Assembly: GCA_965247115.1 (NCBI GenBank)
Contig: CBDFGR010000003.1
Coordinates: 1,248,001 to 1,312,000, forward strand
Length of the DNA: 64,000 bases
DNA from: Myxococcota bacterium
GTDB taxonomy: Bacteria > Myxococcota_A > UBA9160 > SZUA-336
Direction: 5' to 3'
Position numbers and translations under genes: made by a program. Shown here one piece after another: positions 7,576-50,590 of the stretch (positions are counted from its first letter, which is position 1; each line of letters opens with the position of its first letter). The notes beneath the pieces are model-generated. The model had not been told where the DNA came from. It worked only from the letters and a program-made list of their open reading frames with translations, and searched no databases.

Positions 7576-9579
7576 TCAGTACTCCGCACTCACACCAACG
7601 AAGCCTGCGAATCCCGAGCTCTGGAACCCGTGGGGGTCGTCGTACTCGCGGTCGAAGAGGTTTTCGATGCGGGAGAACAGCGTCCAGTGCCGGGAGAGTT
7701 CGAACGTGCCGGCCAGATTCACCACTGTGTAGCCGCCGAGCGAGATCCGGGCCCCCACCGGCGAGTTGGCATCGATGTCCTTGCGGTGACCGATGTAGCG
7801 CACCCCGAGGCTCACTGTCGAGCGCCGCCCAGGGCGCAGCTCGAGCGTGCCGAGGAGCGTGTGGGCCGGACGCCGTAGCAAGTCCTCGCCGCTGTCTAGA
7901 TCCTCGGCGCTCAGGTAGACGTGGTCCAAACGAAGGAAGACCCTGTCCCTGACTCGAACCGAGAGGGAGGACTCGAAGCCGTCCGTCTTTGCCCGCCCGA
8001 CGTTCCGCAGTGTCGTGAAGTCGGCGGTCGCCGCGATCAGGTTGCGGATCCGGTTCTGGAAGTAGGTGACGCCGACGCGCACGAGATCGCCAAAGAGTGG
8101 CTGCTCCACTCCGAGCTCCCACCCGCGACTGCGCTCCGGCTGGAGATCCGGGTTGCCGACGGAGAGCGAGGTGAAGAACGGGCTCGTGAAGACCGACACT
8201 CCGAAGAGATCATCGAGCGAGGGGGCCTTGAAGCCCGTGCCGATGCTGCCGTGGACCTTGGTGCCCGAGTCGGGGTGCACGTAGGCGACGGCCGTTCGGT
8301 AGGTAAGTTCCGAGCCGAACTCGTCGTGGTGCTCGAGGCGCCCCCCCACGACCCCGAAGACGTCACCGAACGTGAACTGCTCCTGCCCGAATACAGCACT
8401 CGAGCGCTGTGAGGCATGGCCACCCTTGGTGAACACGCCGAAGGCCGAGACCGACTCGAGCGAGGAGTCGATCGTCTCCCGCTCGGTCTCCAGCCCGAAC
8501 GTGAGCACGTGCTCCGGAGTAACAGTGAAATCGTGCTGCCAATCGAGCTTTAGTCGCCCGCCGTCGTGCGACTCGATCGAGGAGCCGAGCCCGGGTGGGT
8601 CGGCGTCGTCGAGCTCCTTCCGGTCGTGGTCGCTGAAGGAGACTCCAAGGCGCTGGCGCCACTTCCCATCGAGCAGCTCGAGCCGGCCCTCGGTGCGGAG
8701 GAAGAGCTGGCGTGTCTGGTTGCGGTTGTTCCGGTCCTCGAAGAACGGGTCAAGCTCGTTGTCAGTGTCGACGAAGCGCCCGACGAGCGAGATCTCGCTT
8801 GTGTCCGTGGGCGTGAAGCCGACTCTGCCCGAGAGCGTTCGGTTATCGTACCCGTCCCGCTCGTGCGCACCGCGGTCTTCGGCGACCGCTGTGTGCCCAC
8901 GCGTGTGCAGCGTCGTATAGCTGAGCGAGTAGTTCACAAGGTCATGACTCCCGCGAAGCGCGGTCGCCTGCTGGAACGTGTGGCGCGCGCCCGCCTCCCC
9001 CCAGGCCGTTAGTCGCGGCTTGCCGCGACCCTTGCGCGTGACGACGTTGATCACACCGCCGATGGCGTCGGAGCCGTAGAGCGTACTGAGCGGTCCGCGC
9101 ATCACCTCGACCCGCTCCACGTCCTCGGTCAGCAGGTGCGCGGGGTCGAATACGCCGCCAGGGAGGCTCGGGTCGGAGACCTCGATGCCGTCGAGCAGCA
9201 CGAGCGTGTGGTTCGACTCGGTGCCCCGGATGAAGATCGAGGTCTGCTTGCCAGTTCCCCCTGCCTGCGCCACCTGCACGCCGGGCACCGTGCGGAGCAC
9301 ATCGGTCAGTGTGCGGAGGCCTTTCCTCTCGATCTGGCTGCGTTGAATGACGGTGATCGATCCAGCCACGTGATCGACCGGAATCTCCATGCGGCGAGGC
9401 GCGCTGGCCATGGCAGGCTCGGTCGAGATCCCCATCACGCGCGACGAGGACGGAACGTCCGGCGGATCGGGCTCCGCGGCCGGCGCGAGCCGGGGCGCGA
9501 GAGCCATGAGTGCGGCGCTGAGGATGCAAGGAAGACAGGGACTACGCTTGGGCCCGCGGTCGGCCAATGGGGATCGCAT
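7576..9579 (-). CDS. btuB: TonB-dependent receptor, BtuB-like (vitamin B12)
   Basis: Plug motifs 'SIFIRGTESNHTLVLLDG' and 'RVEVMRGPLSTLYGSDAIGGVINVVT'; 'GNPDLQPE'; 'IENLFDREY'; cobalamin riboswitch directly upstream. Confidence 0.85.
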   Translation of the reverse strand: MRSPLADRGPKRSPCLPCILSAALMALAPRLAPAAEPDPPDVPSSSRVMGISTEPAMASAPRRMEIPVDHVAGSITVIQRSQIERKGLRTLTDVLRTVPGVQVAQAGGTGKQTSIFIRGTESNHTLVLLDGIEVSDPSLPGGVFDPAHLLTEDVERVEVMRGPLSTLYGSDAIGGVINVVTRKGRGKPRLTAWGEAGARHTFQQATALRGSHDLVNYSLSYTTLHTRGHTAVAEDRGAHERDGYDNRTLSGRVGFTPTDTSEISLVGRFVDTDNELDPFFEDRNNRNQTRQLFLRTEGRLELLDGKWRQRLGVSFSDHDRKELDDADPPGLGSSIESHDGGRLKLDWQHDFTVTPEHVLTFGLETERETIDSSLESVSAFGVFTKGGHASQRSSAVFGQEQFTFGDVFGVVGGRLEHHDEFGSELTYRTAVAYVHPDSGTKVHGSIGTGFKAPSLDDLFGVSVFTSPFFTSLSVGNPDLQPERSRGWELGVEQPLFGDLVRVGVTYFQNRIRNLIAATADFTTLRNVGRAKTDGFESSLSVRVRDRVFLRLDHVYLSAEDLDSGEDLLRRPAHTLLGTLELRPGRRSTVSLGVRYIGHRKDIDANSPVGARISLGGYTVVNLAGTFELSRHWTLFSRIENLFDREYDDPHGFQSSGFAGFVGVSAEY

Positions 9580-21512: not shown

Positions 21513-23450
21513 ATGTCGGACCGACCCTGGATCCTCCGCACGTACTCCGGTCACTCGAGTGCGCGCGCATCGAACGAGCTCTACCGCAGCAACCTCGAAA
21601 AGGGTCAGACGGGACTGTCCATCGCCTTCGACCTACCGACGCAGACCGGCTACGACGCGGACCACGAGCTGTCGCAGGGTGAGGTCGGCCGAGTCGGTGT
21701 CCCGATTGGATCGATCGAAGACATGGAGGCGTTGCTCGACGGCATCCCGCTCGATCGCATGAACACGTCGATGACGATCAACGCTACGGCCGCCTGGCTG
21801 CTGGCACTGTACGTCGCCGTCGCGGAACGGCGAGGGATCAGCCGGTCGAGCCTCGCGGGCACCACGCAGAACGACATCATCAAGGAGTACCTCTCCCGAG
21901 GAACCTACATCTTTCCGCCACGCGCCTCGCTGAACCTGACGCGCCAGATCATCGAGTTCTCGGTGGAGGAGGTCCCGAGCTGGAACCCGATCAACATCTG
22001 CTCGTACCACCTGCAGGAGGTGGGCGCGACTCCCGTGCAGGAGGTCGCCTTCGCCCTCGCCAACGCACTGGCCGTCCTGGACGAGGTCGCAGTTCCAAAA
22101 GAGAAGCTTCCCTCAGTGTTCGGACGCATTTCGTTCTTCTGCAATGCGGGCATCCGCTTCGTGGAGGAGATGTGCAAGATGCGCGCTTTTACGCGCATGT
22201 GGGACCGGATTGGACGGGAGCGCTACGACGTCGACGATCCGAAGCTGCGGCGCTTCCGCTACGGCGTACAGGTGAACTCGCTCGGCCTCACCGAGGCACA
22301 GCCGGAGAACAACATCCCCCGCATCGCATTGGAGGCGCTCGGCGTAACACTGTCTCGTGACGCGCGTTGTCGCTCCCTTCAGCTGCCGGCCTGGAACGAA
22401 GCACTCGGGCTGCCGAGGCCCTGGGACCAGCAGTGGTCGCTGCGCATCCAGCAGATCCTGGCACACGAGACCGACCTCCTGGAGTACGGGGACGTGTTCG
22501 AAGGCTCGCGAGTCATCGAGGACAAGGTCGCGGAGATCGAGGAGGGTGCGTGGGCAGAGATCGCGCGTATCGAGGAGATGGGGGGCGCGATCAGCGCCGT
22601 CGAATCCGGCTACATGAAGCGTGCACTCGTCGAGTCAAATGCTCACCGCATCTCCCAGATCCAATCCGGCGAGCGGACCCTCGTCGGCGTGAACCGCTTC
22701 CAGGAGAGTAGCGCGTCTCCGCTCACGGACGGACAGATTGACGCGCTCCGGGTCGACGAGTCCGCAACGCGCGAGCAGATCGAGCGCCTGCGCGCACACC
22801 GCGCAACGCGCAGTAGCGGCGAGGTGGAGCGGGCGCTACGCGCCCTCAAGGGAGCGCTCGCGAAGGGCTCGAACGTCATGCCGGCGTCGATCGAGTGCGC
22901 CAACGCCGGGGTCACTACCGGCGAGTGGTCGGACACCCTGCGCAAGGCCTTTGGCGAGTACCGCGCGCCGACGGGCGTTGAGGCACCGATCCAGCTGCGT
23001 GAGTCCGGCGACATCGAGGCGCTGCGCCGACGCGTGGACGAGGTCTCGAAGCGGCTCGGACGCCGCCTCAAGGCCCTGATCGGCAAGCCAGGGCTCGACG
23101 GGCACTCGAGCGGGGCGGAGCAGATCGCGATCTTCGCACGGGAAGCGGGCTTCGAGGTCGTGTACCAGGGAATCCGGCTGACACCCGAGGAGATCGTGAG
23201 CTCGGCCGAGCAGGAGGGCGTGCACCTGATCGGACTCTCGATCCTGTCCGGGTCGCATCTCTTGCTCGCCCCAGAGGTTGCCCGGCGCGTCGCGGTCCCC
23301 GTTGTCGTCGGTGGGATCATTCCTGAGGCGGACGCTCGGACACTCCTCGAGAACGGAGTGGCGGCCGTGTACACCCCGCGCGACTACGACGTCCACCGGA
23401 TCATCGGCGAGATGATCGAGCTCAGCGCGCGGGCCCACGATCTTGGCTGA
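21513..23450 (+). CDS. ecm: Ethylmalonyl-CoA mutase (MeaA/Ecm), B12-dependent
   Basis: 'DRPWILRTYSGHSSARASNELYRSNL..GQTGLSIAFDLPTQTGYD'; B12 domain 'GKPGLDGHSSGAEQIA' of the Ecm subfamily; start moved to ATG 21513. Confidence 0.88.
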   Translation: MSDRPWILRTYSGHSSARASNELYRSNLEKGQTGLSIAFDLPTQTGYDADHELSQGEVGRVGVPIGSIEDMEALLDGIPLDRMNTSMTINATAAWLLALYVAVAERRGISRSSLAGTTQNDIIKEYLSRGTYIFPPRASLNLTRQIIEFSVEEVPSWNPINICSYHLQEVGATPVQEVAFALANALAVLDEVAVPKEKLPSVFGRISFFCNAGIRFVEEMCKMRAFTRMWDRIGRERYDVDDPKLRRFRYGVQVNSLGLTEAQPENNIPRIALEALGVTLSRDARCRSLQLPAWNEALGLPRPWDQQWSLRIQQILAHETDLLEYGDVFEGSRVIEDKVAEIEEGAWAEIARIEEMGGAISAVESGYMKRALVESNAHRISQIQSGERTLVGVNRFQESSASPLTDGQIDALRVDESATREQIERLRAHRATRSSGEVERALRALKGALAKGSNVMPASIECANAGVTTGEWSDTLRKAFGEYRAPTGVEAPIQLRESGDIEALRRRVDEVSKRLGRRLKALIGKPGLDGHSSGAEQIAIFAREAGFEVVYQGIRLTPEEIVSSAEQEGVHLIGLSILSGSHLLLAPEVARRVAVPVVVGGIIPEADARTLLENGVAAVYTPRDYDVHRIIGEMIELSARAHDLG

Positions 23451-24408
23451 CGAGCTCGCGGCGCTCGTTCAAAGAACACTCAAGCAGGAGCGCGCCGCCA
23501 TTGCGGAGGCGATCAGCCGCGTCGAAGACGTGCGCCCGCGCATGCTCCCAACGCAGCGCGAGCTGATCCGCCTACTCGAAGCAGAGACGCCTGCGGACCA
23601 CAGCGTGCTCGGGCTCACCGGCCCGCCAGGCGTCGGCAAGAGCACCCTCGCGGGCGCGCTCATCCAGCATTGGCTCGAGCAGGGGAACGGTGTGGGCATG
23701 GTTGCCGTGGATCCGTCGAGCCGGCGTTCCGGCGGGGCGCTGCTCGGCGATCGCGCCCGCCTGCGCTTCGAGTCGGAGGCCCGTGTCTTCGTGCGCTCCA
23801 TGGCCTCGGGGGAACAGCTCGGCGGACTCGCTCCAGCCACGCGCGCCGCCGTGGTCGTACTGCGCGCGGCATTCCACTGGACGCTCGTAGAGACGGTGGG
23901 TGTCGGCCAGTCCGAGGTCGACGTGGAGACCGTCACCGACACTGTGGTGCTGGTGCTTCAGCCCGGCTCCGGAGACACACTCCAGTTCATGAAGGCAGGA
24001 ATTCTCGAGATCCCGGACGTGCTCGTGATCCACAAGTGGGATCTGGGGGCCCCGGCCGAGCGCACCCGCGCCGACCTGGAGTCCATGCTCTCACTTCGCT
24101 CCCTTCCAGACGGAGCGTGGAAGCCGCCCGTGATCGGCGTGAGCGCGGAGACGGGGCATGGTGTCGCGACGCTCGCGAGCGAGATCGCGCGCCACCGCTC
24201 ACACCTCGAGGCGGCGGGCGAGCTCGAGCGCCGACGCAGGATGCAACGCGAGGCCTGGGTGATGGAGCTCTTCGAGCGCCGCTACGGCAGCTTCGGACTC
24301 GAGCGTCTCGGTGGCAGGAAGGCGCTGCGCGAGCTCACAAAAGAGAGCGGTGGCTCGGCGCTCGAGGTGTTCAGCCAGCTCTCCAGCCGAGCAGGACTCG
24401 AGCCGTAG
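23443..24408 (+). CDS. meaB: MeaB/ArgK GTPase, acyl-CoA mutase chaperone
   Basis: 'GLTGPPGVGKST', 'VDPSS...GGALLGDRAR', 'ETVGVGQSE'. Confidence 0.93.
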   Translation: MADELAALVQRTLKQERAAIAEAISRVEDVRPRMLPTQRELIRLLEAETPADHSVLGLTGPPGVGKSTLAGALIQHWLEQGNGVGMVAVDPSSRRSGGALLGDRARLRFESEARVFVRSMASGEQLGGLAPATRAAVVVLRAAFHWTLVETVGVGQSEVDVETVTDTVVLVLQPGSGDTLQFMKAGILEIPDVLVIHKWDLGAPAERTRADLESMLSLRSLPDGAWKPPVIGVSAETGHGVATLASEIARHRSHLEAAGELERRRRMQREAWVMELFERRYGSFGLERLGGRKALRELTKESGGSALEVFSQLSSRAGLEP

Positions 24409-37129: not shown

Positions 37130-38422
37130 CTAGCTCTTTGCAGGAAGGGCGCCAGGAAAGACACGAGCGAACGCGAAGAAACAGAGGAAGAAGAGTCCGG
37201 GAAAGCCCAATCCGATCCCGAGCTCAATCGTCGAGAATGGTGTGACCGGCGCGCCGGCGAGTACGTCGGCCGGCGAAACCAGCGAGGGCGTCACCAGGAT
37301 GTAGCGCTCCAGCCAGAAGCCGATCACGGAGCCCGCCGCGACGCTACCCAGGATCGCAGGGGTCTTCTTCGGGAGCGCACCCAGCAGCACCCAGAACGGA
37401 ATCACCCAGAGCAGGAGCCACGTGGACAGGGTGATCCTCGCGTAGGGCTCTGCGACGCGCTCCCAGAATCCGGTCAGGTACCAGGTGTCCTGGACGAACT
37501 GCGACCCGAGTCGGTCGACGATGAAACCGGTCTCTTCCGGGATGTTCGCGTACCAGATTACGAAGTACTGCGACCAGAACAGGTACATCCAGAAGATCGA
37601 GAACGCAAAGATCATTTTGCCGAGGTCGTGGCGCCGGCTCACGGTGATCTCTCCGCTGAGCTCCTGGGAGTTGCGCATGACGAGACAGATGATCGTGAGC
37701 AGAGAGATCGCGGACAGGAAGCCGCCCCAGGAGAAGTAGGCGGGGAACATGGTGCTGACCCATTCCGGTGACAGCGACATGATCATGTCCATTGCGAGCA
37801 GCGAGTAGCAGATCGCGTACGAGACGATCAGCACCACCGCCATCTTGCGCAGGCGCCGCTCTGCGAGCTCGCGTTCGCGCGACTCGCCGCGCCAGCCGCT
37901 GGTCCATCTTGCATACAGTCCGGCGAAACGCCCAGACCCGTTCTCCCGAGCCTCTCCCAGCATCGGACGTACCGACAGGTACAAGTAGAATAGAGACACG
38001 AACGTGATCCAGAGCAGGGCGAAGAGGTCGCGTCCAAAGGTGAAGCCCTCCCGGTACCACCATTCCTTGCCGTGAACTTCGTGGTCCACCCACTCGAAGA
38101 GCTCGTGACGCCCGAGGAAGACGACGAAGAAGAGCACCAGGGTGACCGGGATGTAGGCGCCCATCGAATCGGCGACGCGGTGAATCGGACCCTGCCAGCG
38201 TGCGTTCGTGAGGCGCATGGCACAGGAGAGCACCAGTGCGCCCTGTGCGAGGGCTCCCCACAGCAGCCAGTTGTGAAGGAAGACGCGGTAGGTGCGCTCG
38301 CTCGTGGCCTCACTGCCCGCGATGCCGGCAACGAACGTGATCACGCCGAGCGCGGCGAGGGCCCCGAAGATGGTCAGGGTCCTCGTCGAAAGGGATCTCG
38401 GACTCGCTACGTCGGCGCTCAC
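37130..38422 (-). CDS. actF: Alternative complex III subunit ActF
   Basis: Polytopic; 'MSLSPEWVSTMFP', 'HDLGKMIFAFSIFWMYLFWSQYFVIWYANIPEE'. Confidence 0.9.
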   Translation of the reverse strand: MSADVASPRSLSTRTLTIFGALAALGVITFVAGIAGSEATSERTYRVFLHNWLLWGALAQGALVLSCAMRLTNARWQGPIHRVADSMGAYIPVTLVLFFVVFLGRHELFEWVDHEVHGKEWWYREGFTFGRDLFALLWITFVSLFYLYLSVRPMLGEARENGSGRFAGLYARWTSGWRGESRERELAERRLRKMAVVLIVSYAICYSLLAMDMIMSLSPEWVSTMFPAYFSWGGFLSAISLLTIICLVMRNSQELSGEITVSRRHDLGKMIFAFSIFWMYLFWSQYFVIWYANIPEETGFIVDRLGSQFVQDTWYLTGFWERVAEPYARITLSTWLLLWVIPFWVLLGALPKKTPAILGSVAAGSVIGFWLERYILVTPSLVSPADVLAGAPVTPFSTIELGIGLGFPGLFFLCFFAFARVFPGALPAKS

Positions 38423-38425
38423 AGC

Positions 38426-38968
38426 TCAGCCTCCAAAAAGGGTCCGGAGGTAGTTGACGGTATGCCAGCGATCCTCCGACGAGATCTGGGGGTACCCCGG
38501 CATGAGCGGCTTTCCGTACAGGATCTTCGTGAAGATCTGACCGTCTGTGTAGGCGACGGTAGTGGACAGCGGAAACGGTGGAGCCCCCGACTCGGCGAGG
38601 CGTCGCGCCAGCGGGCTGCTCGCGGGGCTCGCCATGCCGTCCGCAGCGTGACAGACCGCGCAGAACGTCGTGTATAGCTCTCTTCCGCGCGCGATCGACT
38701 CATCGGTCGCGGGAATCGGGTTCACGAGCGCGCGGGCCTCCACCGCGTGCATCGGATTCACGAAGAGCGGATTGTCCTCCTCGATCCGGATCGTGTAGCC
38801 GCCAACGGGGACCGTGCCCTCGGGCGGAGCGAAGGGCTCGGCCTCGAGGGCCTGAATGGCCGGCTGCTCCTTCATCTGCGCGAACCAGCCCTTCGAGACC
38901 TGCTCCCAGCAGCCAGTGCCGAGCAAGGCGACAGCGGCGAGCGCGAAAACGCTCCTAACTCTCGACAA
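38426..38968 (-). CDS. actE: Alternative complex III subunit ActE, monoheme cytochrome c lipoprotein
   Basis: Lipobox 'LGTGC', 'PPEGTVP', 'CAVCH', 'LMPGY...EDRW'; TTG start 38968 with GGAGG. Confidence 0.85.
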   Translation of the reverse strand: MSRVRSVFALAAVALLGTGCWEQVSKGWFAQMKEQPAIQALEAEPFAPPEGTVPVGGYTIRIEEDNPLFVNPMHAVEARALVNPIPATDESIARGRELYTTFCAVCHAADGMASPASSPLARRLAESGAPPFPLSTTVAYTDGQIFTKILYGKPLMPGYPQISSEDRWHTVNYLRTLFGG

Positions 38969-39458
38969 CGCGCACCTCCGCGCACCCGGCACTCCCGAGC
39001 AGCTCCTGCACGCGGGAGATCTGGTCGGGGTGACAGCCGACCACACAGCCGAACTCGTCGCCGCTGAAGCTGGGGCGGTAGGCATCGTGTCCCTTCCGCG
39101 CCATGTAGAGCCCGTGAATCAGGAGCCCGACGACCGTGAGGATGCCCCCAAAAAGGATGTTCAGCTCGAAGCCGATGATCGTATAAGCAGGGATCGAGGC
39201 GAACGGCTTGCCTCCGATGACGAGGGGCCAGTTGTACGCCATCCAGATCTGCATGATGTACGCGAGCGTGACCCCCGTGAGGCAACCGATCAGCGTGTAG
39301 AGACGTACCCGACTCGGTGCACGACCGATCGCCTCTTCGATCTCGTGGCTCGGACAGGGCGAGTAGACCTCGAGATCATCGAAGCCCGCCTGCTTGAGCG
39401 TCCGCACCGCGCCTACAGTCGCCTCCGGAGAGCTCAGCACTCCCAACACGCTCGCCAT
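38955..39458 (-). CDS. actD: Alternative complex III subunit ActD (DUF3341)
   Basis: 'LEVYSPCP', 'NWPLVIGGKPF', 'FELNILFG'; real start ATG 39458 (C-terminal part of ORF 38955..40598). Confidence 0.88.
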   Translation of the reverse strand: MASVLGVLSSPEATVGAVRTLKQAGFDDLEVYSPCPSHEIEEAIGRAPSRVRLYTLIGCLTGVTLAYIMQIWMAYNWPLVIGGKPFASIPAYTIIGFELNILFGGILTVVGLLIHGLYMARKGHDAYRPSFSGDEFGCVVGCHPDQISRVQELLGSAGCAEVRVVES

Positions 39459-40795
39459 CAGTGTGAGTCCTCTGCCAGCGCGTGGTAGTGCAGCTCCTTG
39501 ACCTCCTGGATCGCAATCACCGGGAACAGCCGCAGGAAGATCAGGAACATGGTCAGGAAGAGCGCAAAGCTGGCGGCCAGGATCGTCAGCTCCACGACGC
39601 TCGGCACGTAGTAGCCCCACGCCGCGGGATCGTACTCGTGAGAGAGCCCCGTCGTGATGATCACGTAGCGCTCGAACCACATGCCCACGTTGATGAAGAT
39701 GGAGATCACCCACATGACCGAGGCGCTCTCGCGCAACTTCTTCACCCAGAGGGGAAGGGGCGCGACGACGTTGCAGATGATCATGATCCAGGTCGAGGTC
39801 CAGTGGTAGCCGAAGCCGCGATGCCAGAAAGAGCCCTGCTCGTAGGGGTTCGCGCTGTACCAGGCGCTGAAGAACTCCATCCCGTACGAGTACCCCACGA
39901 TGGAGGAGGTCAGCAGGATGAGCTTCCCCACGTTGTCGAAGTGGCTCGGCGTCAGGTAGCGCTCGAGACCAAAGGCCTTGCGCACCGGCACCAGCAGGGT
40001 GATGACCATCGCGAGTCCGGAGAAGATCGCGCCCGCGACAAAGTACGGGGCAAAGATGGTGGTGTGCCAGCCCGGCACGAGGGAGGTCGCGAAGTCCCAC
40101 GAGACGACGCTGTGCACCGAGAGCACGAGCGGCGTGGCCAGGCCCGAGAGGTGCAAGACTGCGCGCGCGTGGTGGCGCCACTGCTGCGACGAGCCCTTCC
40201 AGCCAAGGGCGAGCACGCGGTAGACGTGTCGCCGCCAGTCGCGCACCCGATCCCGAGCCGCAGCGATGTCCGGGATGAGGCCGACCGCAAAGAACAGGAT
40301 CGAGATCAGCATGTACGTGTTGATCGCGAAGAGGTCCCAGACGAGTGGGGACTTGAAGTTGACCCACAGGCCGCGCTGGTTCGGATAGGGAATCATGAAG
40401 TAGAACTTCCACAGGCGACCGATGTGGATCAGCGGGAACATCGCCGCGATGAGAACGGCGAATACCGTCATCGCCTCGGCGCCGCGGTTGACCGCGTTCC
40501 GCCATTTCGCGCGGAACAAGTACAGGATGGCGGAGATCAGTGTGCCGGCGTGCGCGATCCCCACCCAGAACACGAAGGTCGTGATGTACACGCCCCACAT
40601 GACGGGATGCTGCAGGCCCGTGACACCGAAGCCAAAGTACGTCTGATACAGAAGTGCGCCGACGCCCGCACCGACGATGCCGATGCAGGCGAGCACGCCG
40701 AGCACGTACAGCGGCGTCGGCGGCTCCAAGACGCGCAGGATGTCGTCGTTGATCTGATCCGCTGTTGGCGGAACGAGCTCGGTCGCGGCGGCCAT
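39458..40795 (-). CDS. actC: Alternative complex III subunit ActC (NrfD/PsrC family)
   Basis: 'WGVYITTFVFWVGIAHAGTLISAIL', 'FKSPLVWD', 'LVLSVHSVVSWDFA', 'WHTTIFAPYFVAGAIFSG'. Confidence 0.93.
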   Translation of the reverse strand: MAAATELVPPTADQINDDILRVLEPPTPLYVLGVLACIGIVGAGVGALLYQTYFGFGVTGLQHPVMWGVYITTFVFWVGIAHAGTLISAILYLFRAKWRNAVNRGAEAMTVFAVLIAAMFPLIHIGRLWKFYFMIPYPNQRGLWVNFKSPLVWDLFAINTYMLISILFFAVGLIPDIAAARDRVRDWRRHVYRVLALGWKGSSQQWRHHARAVLHLSGLATPLVLSVHSVVSWDFATSLVPGWHTTIFAPYFVAGAIFSGLAMVITLLVPVRKAFGLERYLTPSHFDNVGKLILLTSSIVGYSYGMEFFSAWYSANPYEQGSFWHRGFGYHWTSTWIMIICNVVAPLPLWVKKLRESASVMWVISIFINVGMWFERYVIITTGLSHEYDPAAWGYYVPSVVELTILAASFALFLTMFLIFLRLFPVIAIQEVKELHYHALAEDSH

Positions 40796-40796
40796 C

Positions 40797-43736
40797 CTAG
40801 GCCTCGCGCTTCACGGCCCGCAGATACGAGACTCCGGGACGCGTGTAGAGGTGCTCGAAGATGCGGTAGGCCCGGGGGTCCACCCGAAGCTTCGACACGT
40901 CGCTCTCCGGGTCGCGCAGGTTTCCGAAGCTGATCGCGTTCGAGGGACACGCTTGCTGGCAGGCGGTCTGCATCTCGCCGTCGCGTACGGTGCGATTCTC
41001 GAGGACGGCCTGATCCTTGGCCGAAGTGATCCGCTGCAGGCACATCGTGCACTTCTCCATTACGCCCTTGGAGCGCACCGTCACGTCCGGGTTCAGAATC
41101 AGCTCCTCGGGCTCGCGATAGAAGAAATCGTACGGCCAGTAGTTGAAGCGGCGCGCCTTGTACGGGCAGTTGTTGCTGCAGAAGCGCGTGCCGATGCAGC
41201 GGTTCGGCACCATCACGTTCAGCCCGTCCTCGCTGTGGTACGTGGCGATGGGCGGGCAGACGCTCTCGCACGGAGCGGCGCCGCAGTGCTGGCACATCAT
41301 GGGGACTGTCCGCACGTCGATCTGACCGTCGTCTCCGAGCTCGACGTAGCGCTCGACCCGGATCCAGTGCATCTCCCGGCCGGTACGCGCGTTGTCCGGG
41401 CCGACCACGGGGATGTTGTTCTCCGTATTACAGGCCATGATGCACGCATCACAGCCCACACAGGCGTCGAGGTCCACGGACATCCCCCAGCGGTAGGGAC
41501 TGTCCGGGTGGGCGTCCGCGGCCGGGTCGTACTCCTTCGTGACAAGATGCTCGGACGAGGCAGGCGCGTGCATGTCGGGTGCCTCGTGGGCCGCGTCTTC
41601 GGCCTCGTGGTCGTCATGCCCCATGAGTGCCGCGAGCGTGGTCGCCTTGGCCACCCCGCGCGTCTCCTGATCGAACGTGATCTGGGCGCGCGCCACGAGC
41701 TTGCGAGCTCCGGTCGGACGCACTGCTGCTCGCGTCGAGAGCCAGGCGAGCCCGCCGCTCTCGGGGTCGAGTCGCCCCGGCACGATCTCGAGCGCGTTCA
41801 CTCCGACCGTGTTGCGCTGCTGCTGGTAATCGGGATCTGGAGCGTTCGGATCTACCGGCTGGTGGCCCTGACCCACCGAGATCGCGACCACGCCGGGCCG
41901 GACAGCCAGGTGAGGATAGACGGCGAGCTCGAGAGAGCCCGCGTCGGTCGAGACCTCGACCACGTCGCCCACATCGACCCCCAGCTCGAGCGCCGTCTCC
42001 GGATTGAGCTCGGCGTAGCTGCCCCACATCGTCTTCGTGACCGGATCGGGAATCTCGTTGAGCGCGGCCAGGCGCTGACTGCGCCCGTCATAGAAGTGAA
42101 GCGACGGGTAGACCACCAGGGCAAGACCGTCTTCCTCGCCGGAGAGTCGCGCCGGCTCGAAGCTCAGGTTCTCCGCACCTGCGGCGAGCGAGACGCCACG
42201 GCTGCCAACGGTCCTGAACTCTCCTCCGCTAGCGACCTTCTGGTCGAAGCCTTCCGCTCCCCAGCGCGCCTTGAGCACGTCCTGGAAGCTTCCTCCTGGC
42301 AGGCTCCCGGCTTTTCCGAGCGCGCGGCCGGCGTCGAGAAGCACGTCGCCAATCGCGCGGGTGTCATTGAGCGGGCGGATCGTCGGCTGCTGCAGGCGCC
42401 GAATCCCGCGAATGGGCTCCGCGTCGCCCCACGCCTCGAACGGGGTGTGGTCCGGCAACACGAGGTCCGCCAGCGCCGTGGTCTCGTCGTTGGCGCTCGA
42501 GAAGCTGACCGTGTACACGCCGCTCGACCCCATCGCATCTGCGAAGCCGACCTGCGGCGCGGTGTATACGGGGTTCGCCCCGTGCACGAGCAGAACGCTG
42601 ACCTCACCGCCCCGCAGCTCTCCCGCCAGCTCCTTCAGGTCGCTGAAGCGAGCCAGCTTGCCCACGTTGTGGTCCGGACCGAACTCGACGGTCTTCCCGA
42701 TTGCGCCGCTCACGTAGTTGAGGATCTGTACGGCAGCCGCGAAGCTGGCCGCGTTCGTGCCCTGGACCTCGATCCCGGGCGGGAGCGCGAGCGGGGCGGA
42801 CGCGCCCACGATCCGCTGCGCCAGCGTTCGGATCTGCCCCGCCTCGAGCCCCGCCTGAGCGGCCACTGCTTCGACCGTGAAGTCGGCCAGCATGCGTCGC
42901 AGCGCGGGCTCAGCCCGCCTCTCTTCCGCAACTTCATGCGCCAGGGCAAGGGCGACCAGCACCTCGGTACCGGGCGCCGCGGCCAGCCAGAGATCCGTGT
43001 TGCCGCCGGAGATGCCGAGGCGCGGGCCCACGTAGGCGGCAAAGCCATGGCCGTTCGCCCTCGCGGTAGCGAGGTTTCGCTGGTTCTGCAGCGGGTTCAG
43101 CCAGGTCTCCAGGAAGTCGGTCCCGAACGCCACGATGACGTCGGCCTTGTCGAGCGCGAAGTGCGGAACCGCATCGGTACCGAAGACCCTCTCGTTCGCG
43201 CTGCGAAGCGCCTCGTGGGCGTAGAGCTCGAAGCGCAGCCGCTTCGAGGAGCCGAGGGCCGTCAGGAAGGCGTCGACGATGCCGTCCAGGGTGCCGGTCT
43301 CGGCTCCGCCGAGAAATGCGACCCGGCCGTTCGCCGCACCGAGCTTCTCGACCAGGAACTCCATGCCCTCGTCCCAGCGGATCGGAACGAGATCCCCCCC
43401 CTCGCGCCGCATGGGGCCCTTGAAGCGGGCCGAATCGTAGGTGCGGTGCAGCCCGGCCTGGCCGCGGACACACAGACTGCCGCCGTCGATCGGGTCGTCG
43501 GGGTTCCCGTCCACCTTGATGGGACGCCCCTCGCGCGTCTTCACACGGATTCCGCAGGCGGCAGGGCACTCCCGGCAGGTGCTGTTGTAGTAGGTCGCGA
43601 TGCCGGGCACGACCTCTTCGGGCTGGTTCAAGTATGGGATGACCGCTTCGAGCGGGTCCTGGCAGGCGACCGTTGCCGCAGCACCGGCGCTCATGCCCAC
43701 GATCTTCAGGAAATCTCGCCGGTCGAGCTCGGACAT
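40797..43736 (-). CDS. actB: Alternative complex III subunit ActB (molybdopterin-oxidoreductase-like + Fe-S domain)
   Basis: Tat motif 'DRRDFLK', 'GRPIKVDGNP', 'CVGCDACIMAC', 'CQHCGAAPCESVCP', 'CIGTRFCSNNCPY', 'KCTMC...CQQACP'. Confidence 0.92.
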   Translation of the reverse strand: MSELDRRDFLKIVGMSAGAAATVACQDPLEAVIPYLNQPEEVVPGIATYYNSTCRECPAACGIRVKTREGRPIKVDGNPDDPIDGGSLCVRGQAGLHRTYDSARFKGPMRREGGDLVPIRWDEGMEFLVEKLGAANGRVAFLGGAETGTLDGIVDAFLTALGSSKRLRFELYAHEALRSANERVFGTDAVPHFALDKADVIVAFGTDFLETWLNPLQNQRNLATARANGHGFAAYVGPRLGISGGNTDLWLAAAPGTEVLVALALAHEVAEERRAEPALRRMLADFTVEAVAAQAGLEAGQIRTLAQRIVGASAPLALPPGIEVQGTNAASFAAAVQILNYVSGAIGKTVEFGPDHNVGKLARFSDLKELAGELRGGEVSVLLVHGANPVYTAPQVGFADAMGSSGVYTVSFSSANDETTALADLVLPDHTPFEAWGDAEPIRGIRRLQQPTIRPLNDTRAIGDVLLDAGRALGKAGSLPGGSFQDVLKARWGAEGFDQKVASGGEFRTVGSRGVSLAAGAENLSFEPARLSGEEDGLALVVYPSLHFYDGRSQRLAALNEIPDPVTKTMWGSYAELNPETALELGVDVGDVVEVSTDAGSLELAVYPHLAVRPGVVAISVGQGHQPVDPNAPDPDYQQQRNTVGVNALEIVPGRLDPESGGLAWLSTRAAVRPTGARKLVARAQITFDQETRGVAKATTLAALMGHDDHEAEDAAHEAPDMHAPASSEHLVTKEYDPAADAHPDSPYRWGMSVDLDACVGCDACIMACNTENNIPVVGPDNARTGREMHWIRVERYVELGDDGQIDVRTVPMMCQHCGAAPCESVCPPIATYHSEDGLNVMVPNRCIGTRFCSNNCPYKARRFNYWPYDFFYREPEELILNPDVTVRSKGVMEKCTMCLQRITSAKDQAVLENRTVRDGEMQTACQQACPSNAISFGNLRDPESDVSKLRVDPRAYRIFEHLYTRPGVSYLRAVKREA

Positions 43737-43757
43737 AGACGGTGCCTTGCCCCCCTT

Positions 43758-44354
43758 TTAGAAGTGGCACGCGGAGCAATCGTCCTCGGCTCCGCGTTCC
43801 AGATGACAATCCATGCACCAGCCCATCTCTAGCTTTGCGGCGGGCAGGAAACCGCTGTAGGGCCGCAGCACCGTGTCTGGTGTCAGGTAGACCCGGTTCA
43901 TCTCCTGAACCTGTCCGTGACACTCCTGGCACTCGACGCCCGCGTTGAGGTGGCGAAAGTGCTTGAACTGCACGTACTCGGGCAGATTGTGGATTCGGAT
44001 CCAGGGAATCGACTCGCCGTTCGCGTAGTACTCCCGGAGCTTGGCGATCTCTTCCGCGCTGCCCTCCGTGCGGCCTTCGGCCACGTGAGTGTGGCAGCCC
44101 ATGCAGGTCGACACGGCGGGAATGGTGGCGTGCTGGCTCTTCTCTGCGGCGCTATGGCAGTACAGGCACTGGATGCCGAGGTCGCCGTCCTCCGCGCTGC
44201 CAGCATGGATCTTGTGGCTGAACTCGATCGGCTGGATCGGGGCTTCGAGCTCCTCGTCGCTGTAGTCGTAGAGCCCCGCTGCGGCAGCGCTCAAGACCAG
44301 TGCAAAGGCGCACACGGCGGCCAGGGGGATCAAAGTGCGCTTCCGGTGACGCAT
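43758..44354 (-). CDS. actA: Alternative complex III subunit ActA, pentaheme cytochrome c
   Basis: Five CxxCH motifs (CLYCH, CMGCH, CQECH, CMDCH, CSACH); 'QPIEFSHKIH'. Confidence 0.92.
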   Translation of the reverse strand: MRHRKRTLIPLAAVCAFALVLSAAAAGLYDYSDEELEAPIQPIEFSHKIHAGSAEDGDLGIQCLYCHSAAEKSQHATIPAVSTCMGCHTHVAEGRTEGSAEEIAKLREYYANGESIPWIRIHNLPEYVQFKHFRHLNAGVECQECHGQVQEMNRVYLTPDTVLRPYSGFLPAAKLEMGWCMDCHLERGAEDDCSACHF

Positions 44355-45238: not shown

Positions 45239-45997
45239 TCAACCTCGGCCGTCCACGAGCGCCGGGATCGTCGCGAGATGTGCGCGGGTCCGCGTGCTCA
45301 GGCGACGCATCAGATCACGCGCACAACGCTCTGCGCTGTCGGCATCGCGCGCCTCGATGGTGACCGCAAGGCGCTGCAGGATCGGGCGGAAGCCGCGACG
45401 CTCGCGCGGTCCCAGCCAGGTCCTCAGCACCGGGCCGGCGCGGCCCAAGAAGCGCTGTATCGAGTTCGCGAGCAGGAGCGCGACGCGATTGCCTCCGAGC
45501 TCGCACAGGGTCGCCGGGAGGGCGAGCAGCGATTCGACGAACTCGCGCTCGGAGAGCTCTGTACTCGCGGTGCCGCGCAGCAACGCCGCCGCCGAGTCCA
45601 GCCTGTCCGGAGTCGCGTTCTCGATGATGCCGCGTACCAGGGCAGGCATCAGCACTTCCCGCAGCTCCAGCAAGTCGGTGATCCACGGGAGGCTCGGGCG
45701 CCCACCCGAGCGGGAGAGCTCCCAGACCAGCTCCAGGCTGGCGTGCCGCGCGTCGCGGATGCGCGTCCCCGAGCCATGCTGAATGTCGATCAGGCGCAGC
45801 TCCTCCAGCTTCTTGAGGGCCTCACGCAGGGAGCTGCGGTTTACGTGGAGCTGCTGGGCCAGCTCCCGCTCCGGGGGAAGGCAATCCCCCACACGCAGCG
45901 ATCCCTCCAGAATCCCGGTCAGGACTCGTTCCACTACGAGCTCCGGCACCGGCCGGCGCCCGTTCTCGCGCTCACGCGAGGCGCGCTGCTCCCCCAC
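45239..45997 (-). CDS. GntR/FadR family transcriptional regulator
   Basis: 'LPPERELAQQLHVNRSSLREALKKLEELRLIDIQHGSGT'; start uncertain (GTG 45997). Confidence 0.85.
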   Translation of the reverse strand: MGEQRASRERENGRRPVPELVVERVLTGILEGSLRVGDCLPPERELAQQLHVNRSSLREALKKLEELRLIDIQHGSGTRIRDARHASLELVWELSRSGGRPSLPWITDLLELREVLMPALVRGIIENATPDRLDSAAALLRGTASTELSEREFVESLLALPATLCELGGNRVALLLANSIQRFLGRAGPVLRTWLGPRERRGFRPILQRLAVTIEARDADSAERCARDLMRRLSTRTRAHLATIPALVDGRG

Positions 45998-46111
45998 TGC
46001 CGCTATCAGATCCCCAGGGAAGGGGACTGTCAACCCTCGCGCTTGAACCCGCCTGGCCGAGCCCTCATCATGCCACGCGGCGGGCGGTGAAAGATGAGAG
46101 GAGCAGGAACC

Positions 46112-47269
46112 ATGCCCCGTGCGTACTCGATCAGTGCGGAGTCCATCGCGAAGGAGACCGCGCGTGTGGACAGCGACCTCTTGAAGTTCGATGTCTCGCG
46201 TGTGATCGAGCTCGACGAGCTCGAGCTCCGTCCCGTGGGTCGGTTCGACGTGCACCTGCGGATCCTTGCCGTCTCCGCCGAACACAACGTCGACCACGCG
46301 GCTCTTGCGGACACCATCAATATTGCGGAGGCCCGTGGGGGCAAGATCTATCCGGGGAACTCCGCGGTCGGCGAGGTCCTGGCGGTCGGCGAGGGGGTCA
46401 GCAAGTTCCAGCCGGGCGAGATCGTCGTCACCCACTGCAACGGAGCGCCGGACAGGTTCGGCTTCCCGCTGCGCATCTGGGCCTACGATCAGCCGGACTC
46501 GGTCGGATGGTACGCAGAGGAGGCGATTGTCGAGGAGTGGCAGATCGTCTCTTGCCCGGTCGGTTGCGGGCTCAACCTTTGGGAGATCGCAGCCCTGCCC
46601 CTCCGCGCGCCCACGGCGTACCACATGTGGCGCCGGGCACTCGGGATCTATCGGCTGAAGGTGCCCGTGGAGAGGCAGGCCGTGCTCAACGTCCTCGGCT
46701 TTGGCGGGGGCGTGTCGGAGCTCTTCCTGATGCTGGCAAAGTCACAGGGCCACAACGTCTTTTTCTGCTCTGGCAGCCCAGAGCGGCGCGACGCCCTGGC
46801 CAGGCTCGGCATCGTCGGGATCGATCAGCAGACCTGGAACCGCTTTGCCACCCGCGACGACGTGAGAGCGTTCAGCCGGGAGGTCCGCAAGCTCACCGAT
46901 GGCGAGAACATGCACCTGGTCTGTGACATGCTGCGCGGCCCGGTCGGCGACGCGGGAATCGCCGTGTCCGCTCGTCAGGGCGTCAACGTGAGTGCGGGCT
47001 GGATGCTGGCCCAGCAGGTCACGTACAACTCGACCTTGCTGTCGGTCAAGCAGGTGACGCTCGACCACGTCCACTTCGAGACGCTGGAGGGCGTCGCTGC
47101 TGCAACCGAGCTCTACGGCAGGGTATTCAAGCCTACGGTCCACAAGGAAGTGTACAGCTTCGAGGATCTTCCTCGCTGCATGCACGAGATGCATCGGAAC
47201 ACACAGACGGGGATCCCGATCGTCCGAGTCGCGGCCGAGCTACCCGCCGCGTTCCGCGAAAACTCGTAG
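46112..47269 (+). CDS. MDR-superfamily enoyl-thioester reductase, divergent crotonyl-CoA carboxylase/reductase-like
   Basis: 'GEVLAVGEGVSKFQPGEIVVTHC', 'RIWAY', 'LWEIAALPLRAPTAY' parallel Ccr; no Zn-ADH GHE motif; GAGGAG RBS. Confidence 0.6.
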   Translation: MPRAYSISAESIAKETARVDSDLLKFDVSRVIELDELELRPVGRFDVHLRILAVSAEHNVDHAALADTINIAEARGGKIYPGNSAVGEVLAVGEGVSKFQPGEIVVTHCNGAPDRFGFPLRIWAYDQPDSVGWYAEEAIVEEWQIVSCPVGCGLNLWEIAALPLRAPTAYHMWRRALGIYRLKVPVERQAVLNVLGFGGGVSELFLMLAKSQGHNVFFCSGSPERRDALARLGIVGIDQQTWNRFATRDDVRAFSREVRKLTDGENMHLVCDMLRGPVGDAGIAVSARQGVNVSAGWMLAQQVTYNSTLLSVKQVTLDHVHFETLEGVAAATELYGRVFKPTVHKEVYSFEDLPRCMHEMHRNTQTGIPIVRVAAELPAAFRENS

Positions 47270-49288: not shown

Positions 49289-50338
49289 CTACCCCCGGGG
49301 GCTGTGGTCGCGGCTTACGAAGCACGCCATGTGCGCGGCCCCATAGTCCTGCAGCGCCGCATAACGGTTGTGGCCCCGACACCGCAGCTCGATTCGGTCG
49401 ATCGAGTGCCGCTTTGCCCTGGCCCATGGATCCACGTGATGGAACTCGAGGAAGTCCTGCGAACTGCAGCGGGGACCGTTCGCGGCGACGAATGCGCACC
49501 GACCTCCATCCCGCGCGAAGACGGCACGTTTGATCTCCGCCGGGATGTGCCGAGACGCGGCTCCGCGCTTCTGCGAAGCCTTCGATCCACGTCGGGGTCT
49601 CGATGTCTGGCAGAACTTCTTCCGCTTCGCCTCATCGAGCAGCAGAGTGAGGGCTCGATCGAAGATCTCCGCGAGATCGCCGTCCGGAATCTGGTGGCGG
49701 AGCAACGCCTGCACCTCACGGAGCTTTCCGCAGAGGCCCTGGCTGCCCGTGAACTGGATCTTGAACCGCCTGCCCCCAAGGGGGACTGGACGTGATACGC
49801 CCAGAACGGGCGGCGACACAGCCGCTCTACAGCTAGAAGTCTCTTGCGACGGACCACCGGTCTTGGAGCGCAACTGGGCCGCAGGTACAGGCCGCCTGGG
49901 GTCGGGGAGCTTCCTCACCCGCCCCGGCACGTCAGGTTTCGGAGCGCGATTGGCGAGCAGCACCTCGATCGCACGCTTGCTCTTGTGGTGCGCCAGGTCG
50001 AGTAGCTCGACGTGGTTATCCAGGGTGAGCGCAGGCGCGAGCAGGTTCGCTCCCGAAAGGTGAATGGCGCCCTCGCGGATACGCTCGAGCAGAAGGGGAT
50101 AAGAGCGCGCGGCACGCGCAGCGCGGATCCGATGGAAGGCCGTCGCCTCCGAGAAGTGGAGCACCTCGGTGCAGTAGCGATACATGCACGAGCAGCCTTG
50201 TTCGAGATAGAGCTCGCGCCGATCGACCTCCGCAAGGTGCGCGAGCAGTTCCGCCTCGTCATGGTGGCTCTTCGCCACGAGCTCGTCGAGTTCTCGGAGG
50301 AGTTTGTGATTGGAAAGGGTCTTCAGGGAGATGTTCAT
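49289..50338 (-). CDS. DUF222-like N-terminal domain + C-terminal HNH-type nuclease domain
   Basis: 'LLAHLAEVDRRELY...MYRYCTEVLHFSEATAFHRIRAARA'; 'RHIPAEIKRAVFARDGGRCAF...RC...LEFHHVDPWA...LRCRGHN'; start moved to ATG 50338. Confidence 0.8.
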   Translation of the reverse strand: MNISLKTLSNHKLLRELDELVAKSHHDEAELLAHLAEVDRRELYLEQGCSCMYRYCTEVLHFSEATAFHRIRAARAARSYPLLLERIREGAIHLSGANLLAPALTLDNHVELLDLAHHKSKRAIEVLLANRAPKPDVPGRVRKLPDPRRPVPAAQLRSKTGGPSQETSSCRAAVSPPVLGVSRPVPLGGRRFKIQFTGSQGLCGKLREVQALLRHQIPDGDLAEIFDRALTLLLDEAKRKKFCQTSRPRRGSKASQKRGAASRHIPAEIKRAVFARDGGRCAFVAANGPRCSSQDFLEFHHVDPWARAKRHSIDRIELRCRGHNRYAALQDYGAAHMACFVSRDHSPRG

Positions 50339-50590
50339 CGTGTCTTTCGTTTTGGGACCAAGAAGAAGTGAGGCCGGAACGGTAGCACGACGTATTTCGG
50401 TGTCGGAGGATCTGCTACGTCGACCGATCAAAGGCGCGTGCGACTTCGAGGACGGAACTCGCGCAAAGATTCAGCAGAGAGGCGTCCGGTATCGAGCAAC
50501 GCAGCTACGGCGCAGAACTCGGCTCGAGCCTGCGAGTTCTCAAAATCTGTCAAGGACTTTCTTGCTGTTTTTTCGAAAAGTCATCTTGCC

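Follow-up and report, generated by a model that had tools for sequence, protein, structure and literature searches.

A divergent crotonyl-CoA carboxylase/reductase-like family predicted to serve the ethylmalonyl-CoA pathway in Myxococcota and other bacteria

We report a gene whose product, P0001, is probably an NADPH-dependent crotonyl-CoA carboxylase/reductase (Ccr) of the ethylmalonyl-CoA pathway. It would convert crotonyl-CoA, CO2 and NADPH into ethylmalonyl-CoA and so take part in acetyl-CoA assimilation through this pathway. The gene lies in a 64,000-nt stretch of a Myxococcota contig, hereafter the window. P0001 and its close relatives form a family that we call clade X, and a more diverse sister group is called clade Y. 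We infer the carboxylase activity from the four conserved CO2-pocket positions, an ECR-like fold, the mutual exclusion with Ccr, the sharing of gene slots with Ccr, and the co-occurrence with the ethylmalonyl-CoA mutase Ecm. P0001 likely represents a second, so far overlooked lineage of crotonyl-CoA carboxylases outside the curated Ccr family.

P0001 is encoded by an open frame of 385 amino acids, with a purine-rich GAGGAG stretch directly ahead of the ATG (Table 1). A separate DNA run carried the whole stretch on one contig with zero indels, and 12 of the 14 listed substitutions within the ORF fell at third codon positions (hand count), indicating that the frame is real and apparently under selection. 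All motifs that an earlier note had picked out by eye as Ccr-like were located in the translation: SAEHNVDH (residues 55–62), PGNSAVGEV (81–89), VVTHC (105–109), RIWAYDQ (121–127), LWEIAALPLRAPTAY (156–170), VLGFGGGV (194–201), and HVHFET (319–324). Pfam assigned generic MDR domains only (ADH_N and ADH_zinc_N).

Table 1 Features of the window discussed in the text, with positions in the whole stretch.
Feature	Position	Strand	Evidence or remark
Ecm/MeaA ethylmalonyl-CoA mutase, downstream pathway partner	21513..23450	+	59% identity to annotated 'protein meaA'
MeaB GTPase chaperone of the mutase	23443..24408	+	TIGR00750 over cut-off
Divergent GntR/FadR-type regulator (start approximate)	45239..46033	-	next to the clade X gene in 12 of 80 loci
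Sigma-70-like element TTGAAC-N17-CATCAT, 5' of clade X gene, likely promoter	46043..46071	+	by eye; nine other clade X loci
Clade X gene P0001, divergent Ccr-like MDR enzyme	46112..47269	+	ORF, profile, fold, homologues
Asn59 codon (KsCcr Asn81, CO2 anchor)	46286..46288	+	N in 121/121 clade X
Tyr125-Asp126 codons (KsCcr Phe170-Glu171)	46484..46489	+	Y and D in 121/121 clade X
His321 codon (KsCcr His365)	47072..47074	+	H in 121/121 clade X

The sigma-70-like element ahead of the gene is likely its promoter, judging from its sequence and recurrence; it fell under the threshold of the promoter scan and was not listed by it. The pattern TTGA-N19-CATCAT was conserved 5' of ten clade X genes, with copies at positions 7965–7993 in three loci (L010, L012, L075). 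The second hexamer ended 7 nt ahead of the ATG in several clade X loci, a spacing that suggests leaderless mRNAs there; the window copy differs from these in having a longer leader, which contains the GAGGAG stretch. Three metatranscriptome runs from a single study yielded contigs over parts of the gene, which were too short and low in depth to be accepted as proof of transcription.

The best NCBIfam match of P0001 was the Ccr model TIGR01751 (E = 3.8e-20). The score of 71.9 bits (70.5 when the genome was searched) is below the cut-off of 378.55, which leaves P0001 outside the Ccr equivalog. Ccrs were six of the top seven phmmer matches among PDB sequences, and a profile-profile comparison with Ccr gave a probability of 99.4% over 326 columns. 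By these three measures the likeness to Ccr is above chance. The sub-threshold score and the identity to Ccr of 20–25%, which is in the same range as the identity to unrelated MDRs (17–26%), count against a carboxylase. On the archaeal acryloyl-CoA reductase model P0001 scored only 13.7 bits.

Of 7999 candidates scored in a homologue search with P0001, 2165 reached E ≤ 0.001, and the best 120 of these were 72–98% identical along their whole length. The JGI label 'crotonyl-CoA carboxylase/reductase' was attached to 16 of these 120 listed homologues, the others being mostly labelled dehydrogenase or quinone reductase, or unlabelled. The earlier expectation that pipelines would see only a Zn-binding dehydrogenase thus does not always hold. 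Among GTDB contigs, 191 stretches encoded a relative, and 80 were kept, their titles naming Myxococcota, Deltaproteobacteria, Acidimicrobiales/Actinomycetota, Binatia, Polyangiales, and others. Clade X is a conserved family (~70–80% identity) in Myxococcota-, Acidimicrobiales-, and Binatia-labelled genomes. The second full-length group, clade Y, came from a profile search of 1.84 billion representatives and was 23–30% identical to P0001. A plasmid search returned four clade Y matches and no clade X member, the solved structures searched included none for either clade, and the ESM Atlas offered only automatic dehydrogenase cluster names for clade X.

An IQ-TREE phylogeny of 32 rows, from which 23 of 55 rows had been removed for long branches, odd composition, or redundancy, resolved three separate groups: X+Y (support 100/100), canonical Ccrs (99/96), and other MDRs (99/98). 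The 55-row quick tree was concordant, its outgroup being less well supported (84). When the root is placed on the other MDRs, and with CinF, AntE, PCS, AER, and AcuI outside the tree, X+Y is sister to the sampled Ccrs and not nested among them.

The structure of P0001 was modelled with AlphaFold from 140 X and Y sequences (pLDDT 94.8, pTM 0.93), replacing a first model built from 30 sequences (pLDDT 77.8, poor at residues 276–314). Foldseek with the 140-sequence model returned ECRs only down to rank 17 (TMq 0.78–0.84), and the best non-ECR had a TMq of 0.75. VIA, run on the first model, placed ECRs in its top nine rows (Z 30.7–32.9, rmsd 2.7–3.2, 323–343 residues), and ordinary dehydrogenases followed from rank 10 at Z 30.3 and lower, a small margin. 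The predicted fold is nearest to ECRs by a modest margin. The likeness to Ccr/ECR put forward in the earlier note therefore held up in both comparisons, with ECRs as the closest folds and TIGR01751, under its cut-off, as the best NCBIfam match.

To identify the pocket residues, L099, a canonical Ccr found in a related genome, was aligned by phmmer to Kitasatospora setae Ccr (KsCcr; 6NA3 and 6OWE) and then to P0001 by profile-profile comparison. This bridge equated KsCcr N81, F170, E171, and H365 with N59, Y125, D126, and H321, the same Asn, Tyr, Asp, and His that had been proposed by eye, and all four were invariant in the 121 clade X sequences. The pattern N, F/Y, D/E, H was present in 121/121 clade X, 119/120 clade Y, and 10/10 canonical Ccr sequences, and in none of the 14 other MDRs of the same genome. 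Tyrosine occupied the F170 position in five of the ten canonical Ccrs compared. According to Table 1 of Stoffel et al. 2019 (PMC6628652), KsCcr F170Y kept 100% carboxylation and E171A kept 97% with a 17-fold lower kcat, suggesting that tyrosine is tolerated and the acid dispensable at this pocket; N81L and F170A fell to 19% and 17%, respectively. The aspartate found in all clade X members corresponds to E171D, a substitution outside that table.

The second shell is rebuilt in clade X. Relative to KsCcr, the changes are N79 to E57, T82 to V/I60, S119 to N83, D120 to S84, W84 to H62, and G363 to H319, and all of them except position 60 are invariant. Thr82 and Ser119, which orient Asn81, are thus replaced by V/I60 and N83, and this weighs against a carboxylase, as T82D and S119A lowered the turnover of KsCcr more than 50-fold, with almost full carboxylation (PMC6628652). 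Three of the ten canonical Ccrs also lack the threonine, having asparagine instead. Given this second shell, neither the rate nor the carboxylation fraction of clade X can be predicted. At the CoA-binding positions K296 and R303 of Ccr, clade X was basic in 95 and 111 of 121 sequences, respectively. The replacement of Q165, Y328, and K332 is a further point against carboxylation; these five residues are among those tested by DeMirci et al. (PMC9413435). A look-alike pocket may also not suffice, since PCS and the archaeal acrylyl-CoA reductase are described as barely carboxylating until engineered (PMC7918591, PMC10176493).

The zinc-ligand positions speak to a different reading, in which P0001 would be an ordinary zinc-dependent alcohol dehydrogenase or a quinone reductase, the identity suggested by its Pfam domains, the source labels, and the ESM Atlas cluster names. 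All 121 clade X sequences carry E57, N83, and L164 there, where the other MDRs of the genome mostly have C, H, and C, and the four-cysteine lobe that provides structural zinc ligands is absent. The residues at the ligand positions argue that P0001 is not a zinc dehydrogenase, and the context and distribution of clade X, described below, track Ccr. We give this reading almost no weight.

The cofactor is probably NADPH, as the segment S/A220-G221-S/T222-x-x-R225 has no acidic residue at position 220, unlike 9 of the 14 other MDRs, which carry Asp there. The nucleotide-binding loop VLGFGGGV, previously called atypical, proved only mildly so: G199-G200 are kept and F197 is the main difference.

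The genome that contains the window (G000) is 98% complete in three contigs. A TIGR01751 profile search of it gave no match over the cut-off, so that the check for a canonical ccr suggested in the earlier note detected none. The best match (L001, 141.9 bits), considered as a hidden canonical Ccr, was rejected as a quinone-reductase-like MDR of 335 aa that lacks the pocket. Isocitrate lyase (ICL) was not found in the genome, nor was a PF01274 match for malate synthase. As ICL was detected in only 3 of the 121 genomes of the same class, replacement of the glyoxylate shunt by the ethylmalonyl-CoA pathway fits.

Ecm, which had been reported in the same window, was confirmed there (Table 1). It lies ~23 kb from the clade X gene, hence non-adjacent, and is distinct from the genome's own methylmalonyl-CoA mutase (37% identity). 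Homologues of the full set Ecm, Mcd, Mch, Mcl, Pcc, and Mcm were present in the genome, the last five elsewhere in the genome, and for the upstream steps only thiolase homologues were seen; the names Mcd, Mch, Mcl, and SucCD-like denote likeness and context, mostly under curated cut-offs. At G000:C1:145604-152238, a 1162-aa IcmF-like mutase ORF (labelled by length and sequence likeness only) is clustered with a 715-aa Mcm, MeaB, and a carboxyltransferase-like gene.

The immediate neighbours of the clade X gene, a GntR/FadR-type regulator gene, an EVE-domain gene, and an acyl-CoA ligase gene, were little informative. The regulator gene adjoins the clade X gene in 12 of 80 loci, and its product possibly regulates it. 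No pathway gene stands beside P0001, and the queried pathway markers, of which at least one was present in 45 of the 80 loci, were missing from 35, which counts against a carboxylase. Elsewhere in the window, genes for a multihaem cytochrome c, a molybdopterin/Fe-S subunit, and membrane subunits are clustered at 37130–44354 on the minus strand (by eye), a cluster that we take to resemble alternative complex III. A 380-aa ORF at 49289–50431 (minus strand) has an HNH-like C-terminal motif and, by eye, resembles mobile endonuclease domain proteins.

The pathway also has a gap, in that a canonical epimerase is mostly missing, another point against the carboxylase. The best candidate in the genome (G000:C3:48460-48828) scored 86.4 bits against a cut-off of 114.95, and canonical epimerases exceeded the cut-off in 1 of 23 genomes of the same family, in none of 5 other carriers, and, among canonical-Ccr genomes of the class, in 1 of 5. 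The gap is class-wide and not tied to clade X, and the class, despite having Ecm, Mcm, and Pcc, likely uses a divergent or unrelated epimerase. The missing epimerase would fit an enzyme that makes the (2R) product directly, which we regard as highly doubtful. It was rejected as a sign of (2R) specificity because the epimerase is found in only one of the five canonical-Ccr genomes, and the clade X gene adjoins an epimerase gene in 21 of 80 loci.

To compare the distributions of clade X, Ccr, and Ecm, we surveyed 303 genomes: 121 from the class of the studied genome, 101 from the order of G122 (taken as Acidimicrobiales from the titles of loci with the same layout), and 81 from the class of G123 (named from a Binatia record). 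These counts include three unpublished genomes (G305 and G325 in the order, G439 in the class of G123). The class of G122 was uninformative, with clade X in 1 of 151 genomes, and the search was moved to the order. Overall, canonical Ccr was found in 11 of 124 clade X carriers compared with 115 of 179 non-carriers. Ecm was found in 117 of the 124 carriers, a favourable outcome of the co-occurrence check that the earlier note had called for.

Within the first class, clade X was found in 104 genomes, 93 of them without canonical Ccr. Canonical Ccr was found in 24 genomes, divided between 11 of the clade X carriers and 13 of the 17 non-carriers, and Ecm in 110, including 97 of the carriers. Four genomes had neither clade X nor Ccr; three of them had no Ecm match and two had ICL. 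The 11 genomes with both enzymes, and the 7 of 104 carriers without an Ecm match, are exceptions that count against the carboxylase. In the order of G122, clade X (9 genomes) and Ccr (61 genomes) did not overlap, and the 72 Ecm-positive genomes comprised 60 with Ccr, all 9 with clade X, and 3 with neither. The class of G123 likewise had no overlap between clade X (11 genomes, all with Ecm) and Ccr over the cut-off (41 genomes). Only 25 of these 41 Ccr genomes were matched by the Ecm query, which may miss divergent mutases. Twelve more genomes of this class had a distant Y-like match, 2 of them with Ccr and 10 with Ecm. Five further clade X carriers (G122 and G123 already counted) all had Ecm, with no matches to Ccr or ICL. 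Fisher tests gave p values of 4e-8, 1e-4, and 2e-4, which overstate the significance because the genomes are related and are not independent samples; they are also partly incomplete.

The same counts bear on whether P0001 is a reductive carboxylase or reductase for another enoyl-CoA, such as acrylyl-CoA or longer chains, linked to the pathway via propionyl-CoA or fatty-acid handling. The FadR-type regulator and the acyl-CoA ligase next to the gene would suit such a substrate, and ECRs are known to take various enoyl-CoAs (PMC9413435). However, Ecm-positive carriers that lack Ccr need a source of ethylmalonyl-CoA, and in the order of G122 clade X was present in 9 of 12 Ecm-positive, Ccr-negative genomes and in none of the 29 Ecm-negative ones. 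This reading is improbable in our estimate, and we favour crotonyl-CoA as the substrate.

Gene order placed clade X in positions held elsewhere by canonical Ccr. The class has a recurrent block, Mch/PntAB – [slot] – SucCD-like ligase – Mcl – NadA – Ecm – MeaB, and clade X occupied the slot in 11 of 11 fetched regions, which had been picked for clade X near ecm on one contig. Of the 13 Ccr genomes lacking clade X, 10 had a Streptomyces-type canonical Ccr in that slot; the other three were one with a short contig without visible neighbours and two (G087, 830 contigs; G096, 490 contigs) whose Ccr is of another type and lies elsewhere. Where a genome had both enzymes (11 cases), the canonical Ccr was always outside the block, and ten were of the other type. 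Three of these ten adjoin PKS/NRPS-like genes, and second-type canonical Ccrs of the class (L231, L232, L238, L242) lie near PKS/NRPS-like and glycosyltransferase-like genes. In 27 of the 30 loci returned for the order of G122, canonical Ccr was flanked by a divergent thiolase and an epimerase, and the same thiolase/[slot]/epimerase arrangement held clade X in 16 of the 80 clade X loci. Clade X and canonical Ccr thus swap within the same gene slot in two lineages. A second succinate/malate-CoA ligase pair and the PntAB transhydrogenase accompany the Ccr slot in L106-L116 and L098-L103, which suggests malyl-CoA handling and NADPH supply.

Clade Y showed two kinds of context. Of the 82 clade Y loci, 17 had a compact operon with Mcl-, Mcd-, Mch-, or Ecm-like genes, and an NRPS module was found in 13 loci by one query and 26 by clustering; by the one-query count no locus had both. 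Known ECRs are likewise split between primary metabolism and assembly lines, as summarised in a review. In L153, L158, L187, L206, and L208, the clade Y gene is the first of a compact operon that also encodes a divergent member of the citrate lyase family, an acyl-CoA dehydrogenase of 547 aa, a mesaconyl-CoA hydratase, and a mutase, which in L158 is only 42% identical to the Ecm of the window. Members in L148, L149, L172, L179, L180, and L195 adjoin NRPS/PKS, thioesterase, P450, TauD, and halogenase genes, and one clade Y protein (P0205) is fused to a carrier-protein domain. The NRPS/PKS-adjacent members are possibly unrecognised extender-unit suppliers.

The synteny and the exclusion pattern would be explained equally well by a plain crotonyl-CoA reductase that forms butyryl-CoA, from which an ATP-costing biotin-dependent acyl-CoA carboxylase makes ethylmalonyl-CoA, so that two steps fill the slot of Ccr. 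Pcc accepts butyryl-CoA, and the genome has PccAB-like genes and the IcmF-like mutase ORF. The second shell is altered, and its invariant acid E57 near the active site could donate a proton; a review also describes non-carboxylating relatives. However, clades X and Y retain all four pocket positions although they are only 23–30% identical, a reductase would have no evident need for N59, Y125, and D126 together, and clade Y also adjoins NRPS/PKS genes, as do extender-supplying ECRs. We therefore regard a plain reductase as unlikely, more plausible than the other alternatives, and prefer the reductive carboxylase. By analogy with Ccr chemistry, NADPH would transfer a hydride to C3 of crotonyl-CoA to give an enolate, CO2 would be positioned by N59 and by a water held by D126 and H321, and Y125 would exclude water.

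We lean towards regarding X+Y as a second natural family of reductive carboxylases beside the sampled Ccrs, with a rebuilt Asn-Tyr-Asp-His pocket and an E57/N83/S84 second shell, fixing CO2 in the ethylmalonyl-CoA pathway of several uncultured groups and, through clade Y, supplying NRPS/PKS extender units. ECRs are among the fastest CO2-fixing enzymes known, synthetic fixation cycles are built around them, and the ethylmalonyl-CoA pathway has ccr as its marker gene. The cut-off of this marker misses clade X at ~22% identity, so that most genomes of the class (93/121, with clade X and no canonical Ccr) would be taken to have an incomplete pathway or none. With clade X, nature provides a test of whether the four residues are enough for carboxylation when the second shell differs; the clade also may inform the origin of ECRs from reductases, and adds hundreds of new enzymes to screen; clade Y flags possible unusual extender units in NRPS/PKS clusters.

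No description of clade X was found in the literature, in a search that reached few subscription papers and possibly missed MDR family surveys. The available text of studies of Binatota (PMC8262859, bioRxiv 2020.09.14.296780), Myxococcota (PMC10576062), and Acidimicrobiales (PMC4337565) reports the ethylmalonyl-CoA pathway with ccr and mentions no divergent form.

Compared with the reference Ccrs of K. setae (6OWE, 6NA3), Streptomyces collinus (3HZZ), and S. coelicolor (3KRT), with 4GI2, and with TIGR01751, clade X shares the MDR fold (TMq up to 0.84), N/aromatic/acid/H at the CO2-pocket positions, the HC and IW motifs, TAY, the R-x-F...R-x-x-T helix, a mostly basic character at the K296 and R303 positions, the gene slots, and the co-occurrence with Ecm. 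It differs in being ~30–60 residues shorter, in having Asp for Glu171 and GFGGGV in place of GASGGL, in its second shell (E57, V/I60, N83, S84, H62, H319), and in forming a separate branch of the tree. The secondary-metabolism ECRs CinF (4A0S, 4A10) and AntE (4Y0K) were the top VIA fold matches of P0001 and recall clade Y, which also occurs near NRPS/PKS genes; unlike them, clade X is spread across its class at close to one copy per genome and is tied to primary metabolism. PCS of Erythrobacter sp. NAP1 and the archaeal acrylyl-CoA reductase of Nitrosopumilus maritimus are likewise MDR enoyl-CoA reductases outside Ccr with CO2-binding potential (PMC7918591, PMC10176493). They are described there as natural reductases with little carboxylation, whereas clade X tracks Ecm.
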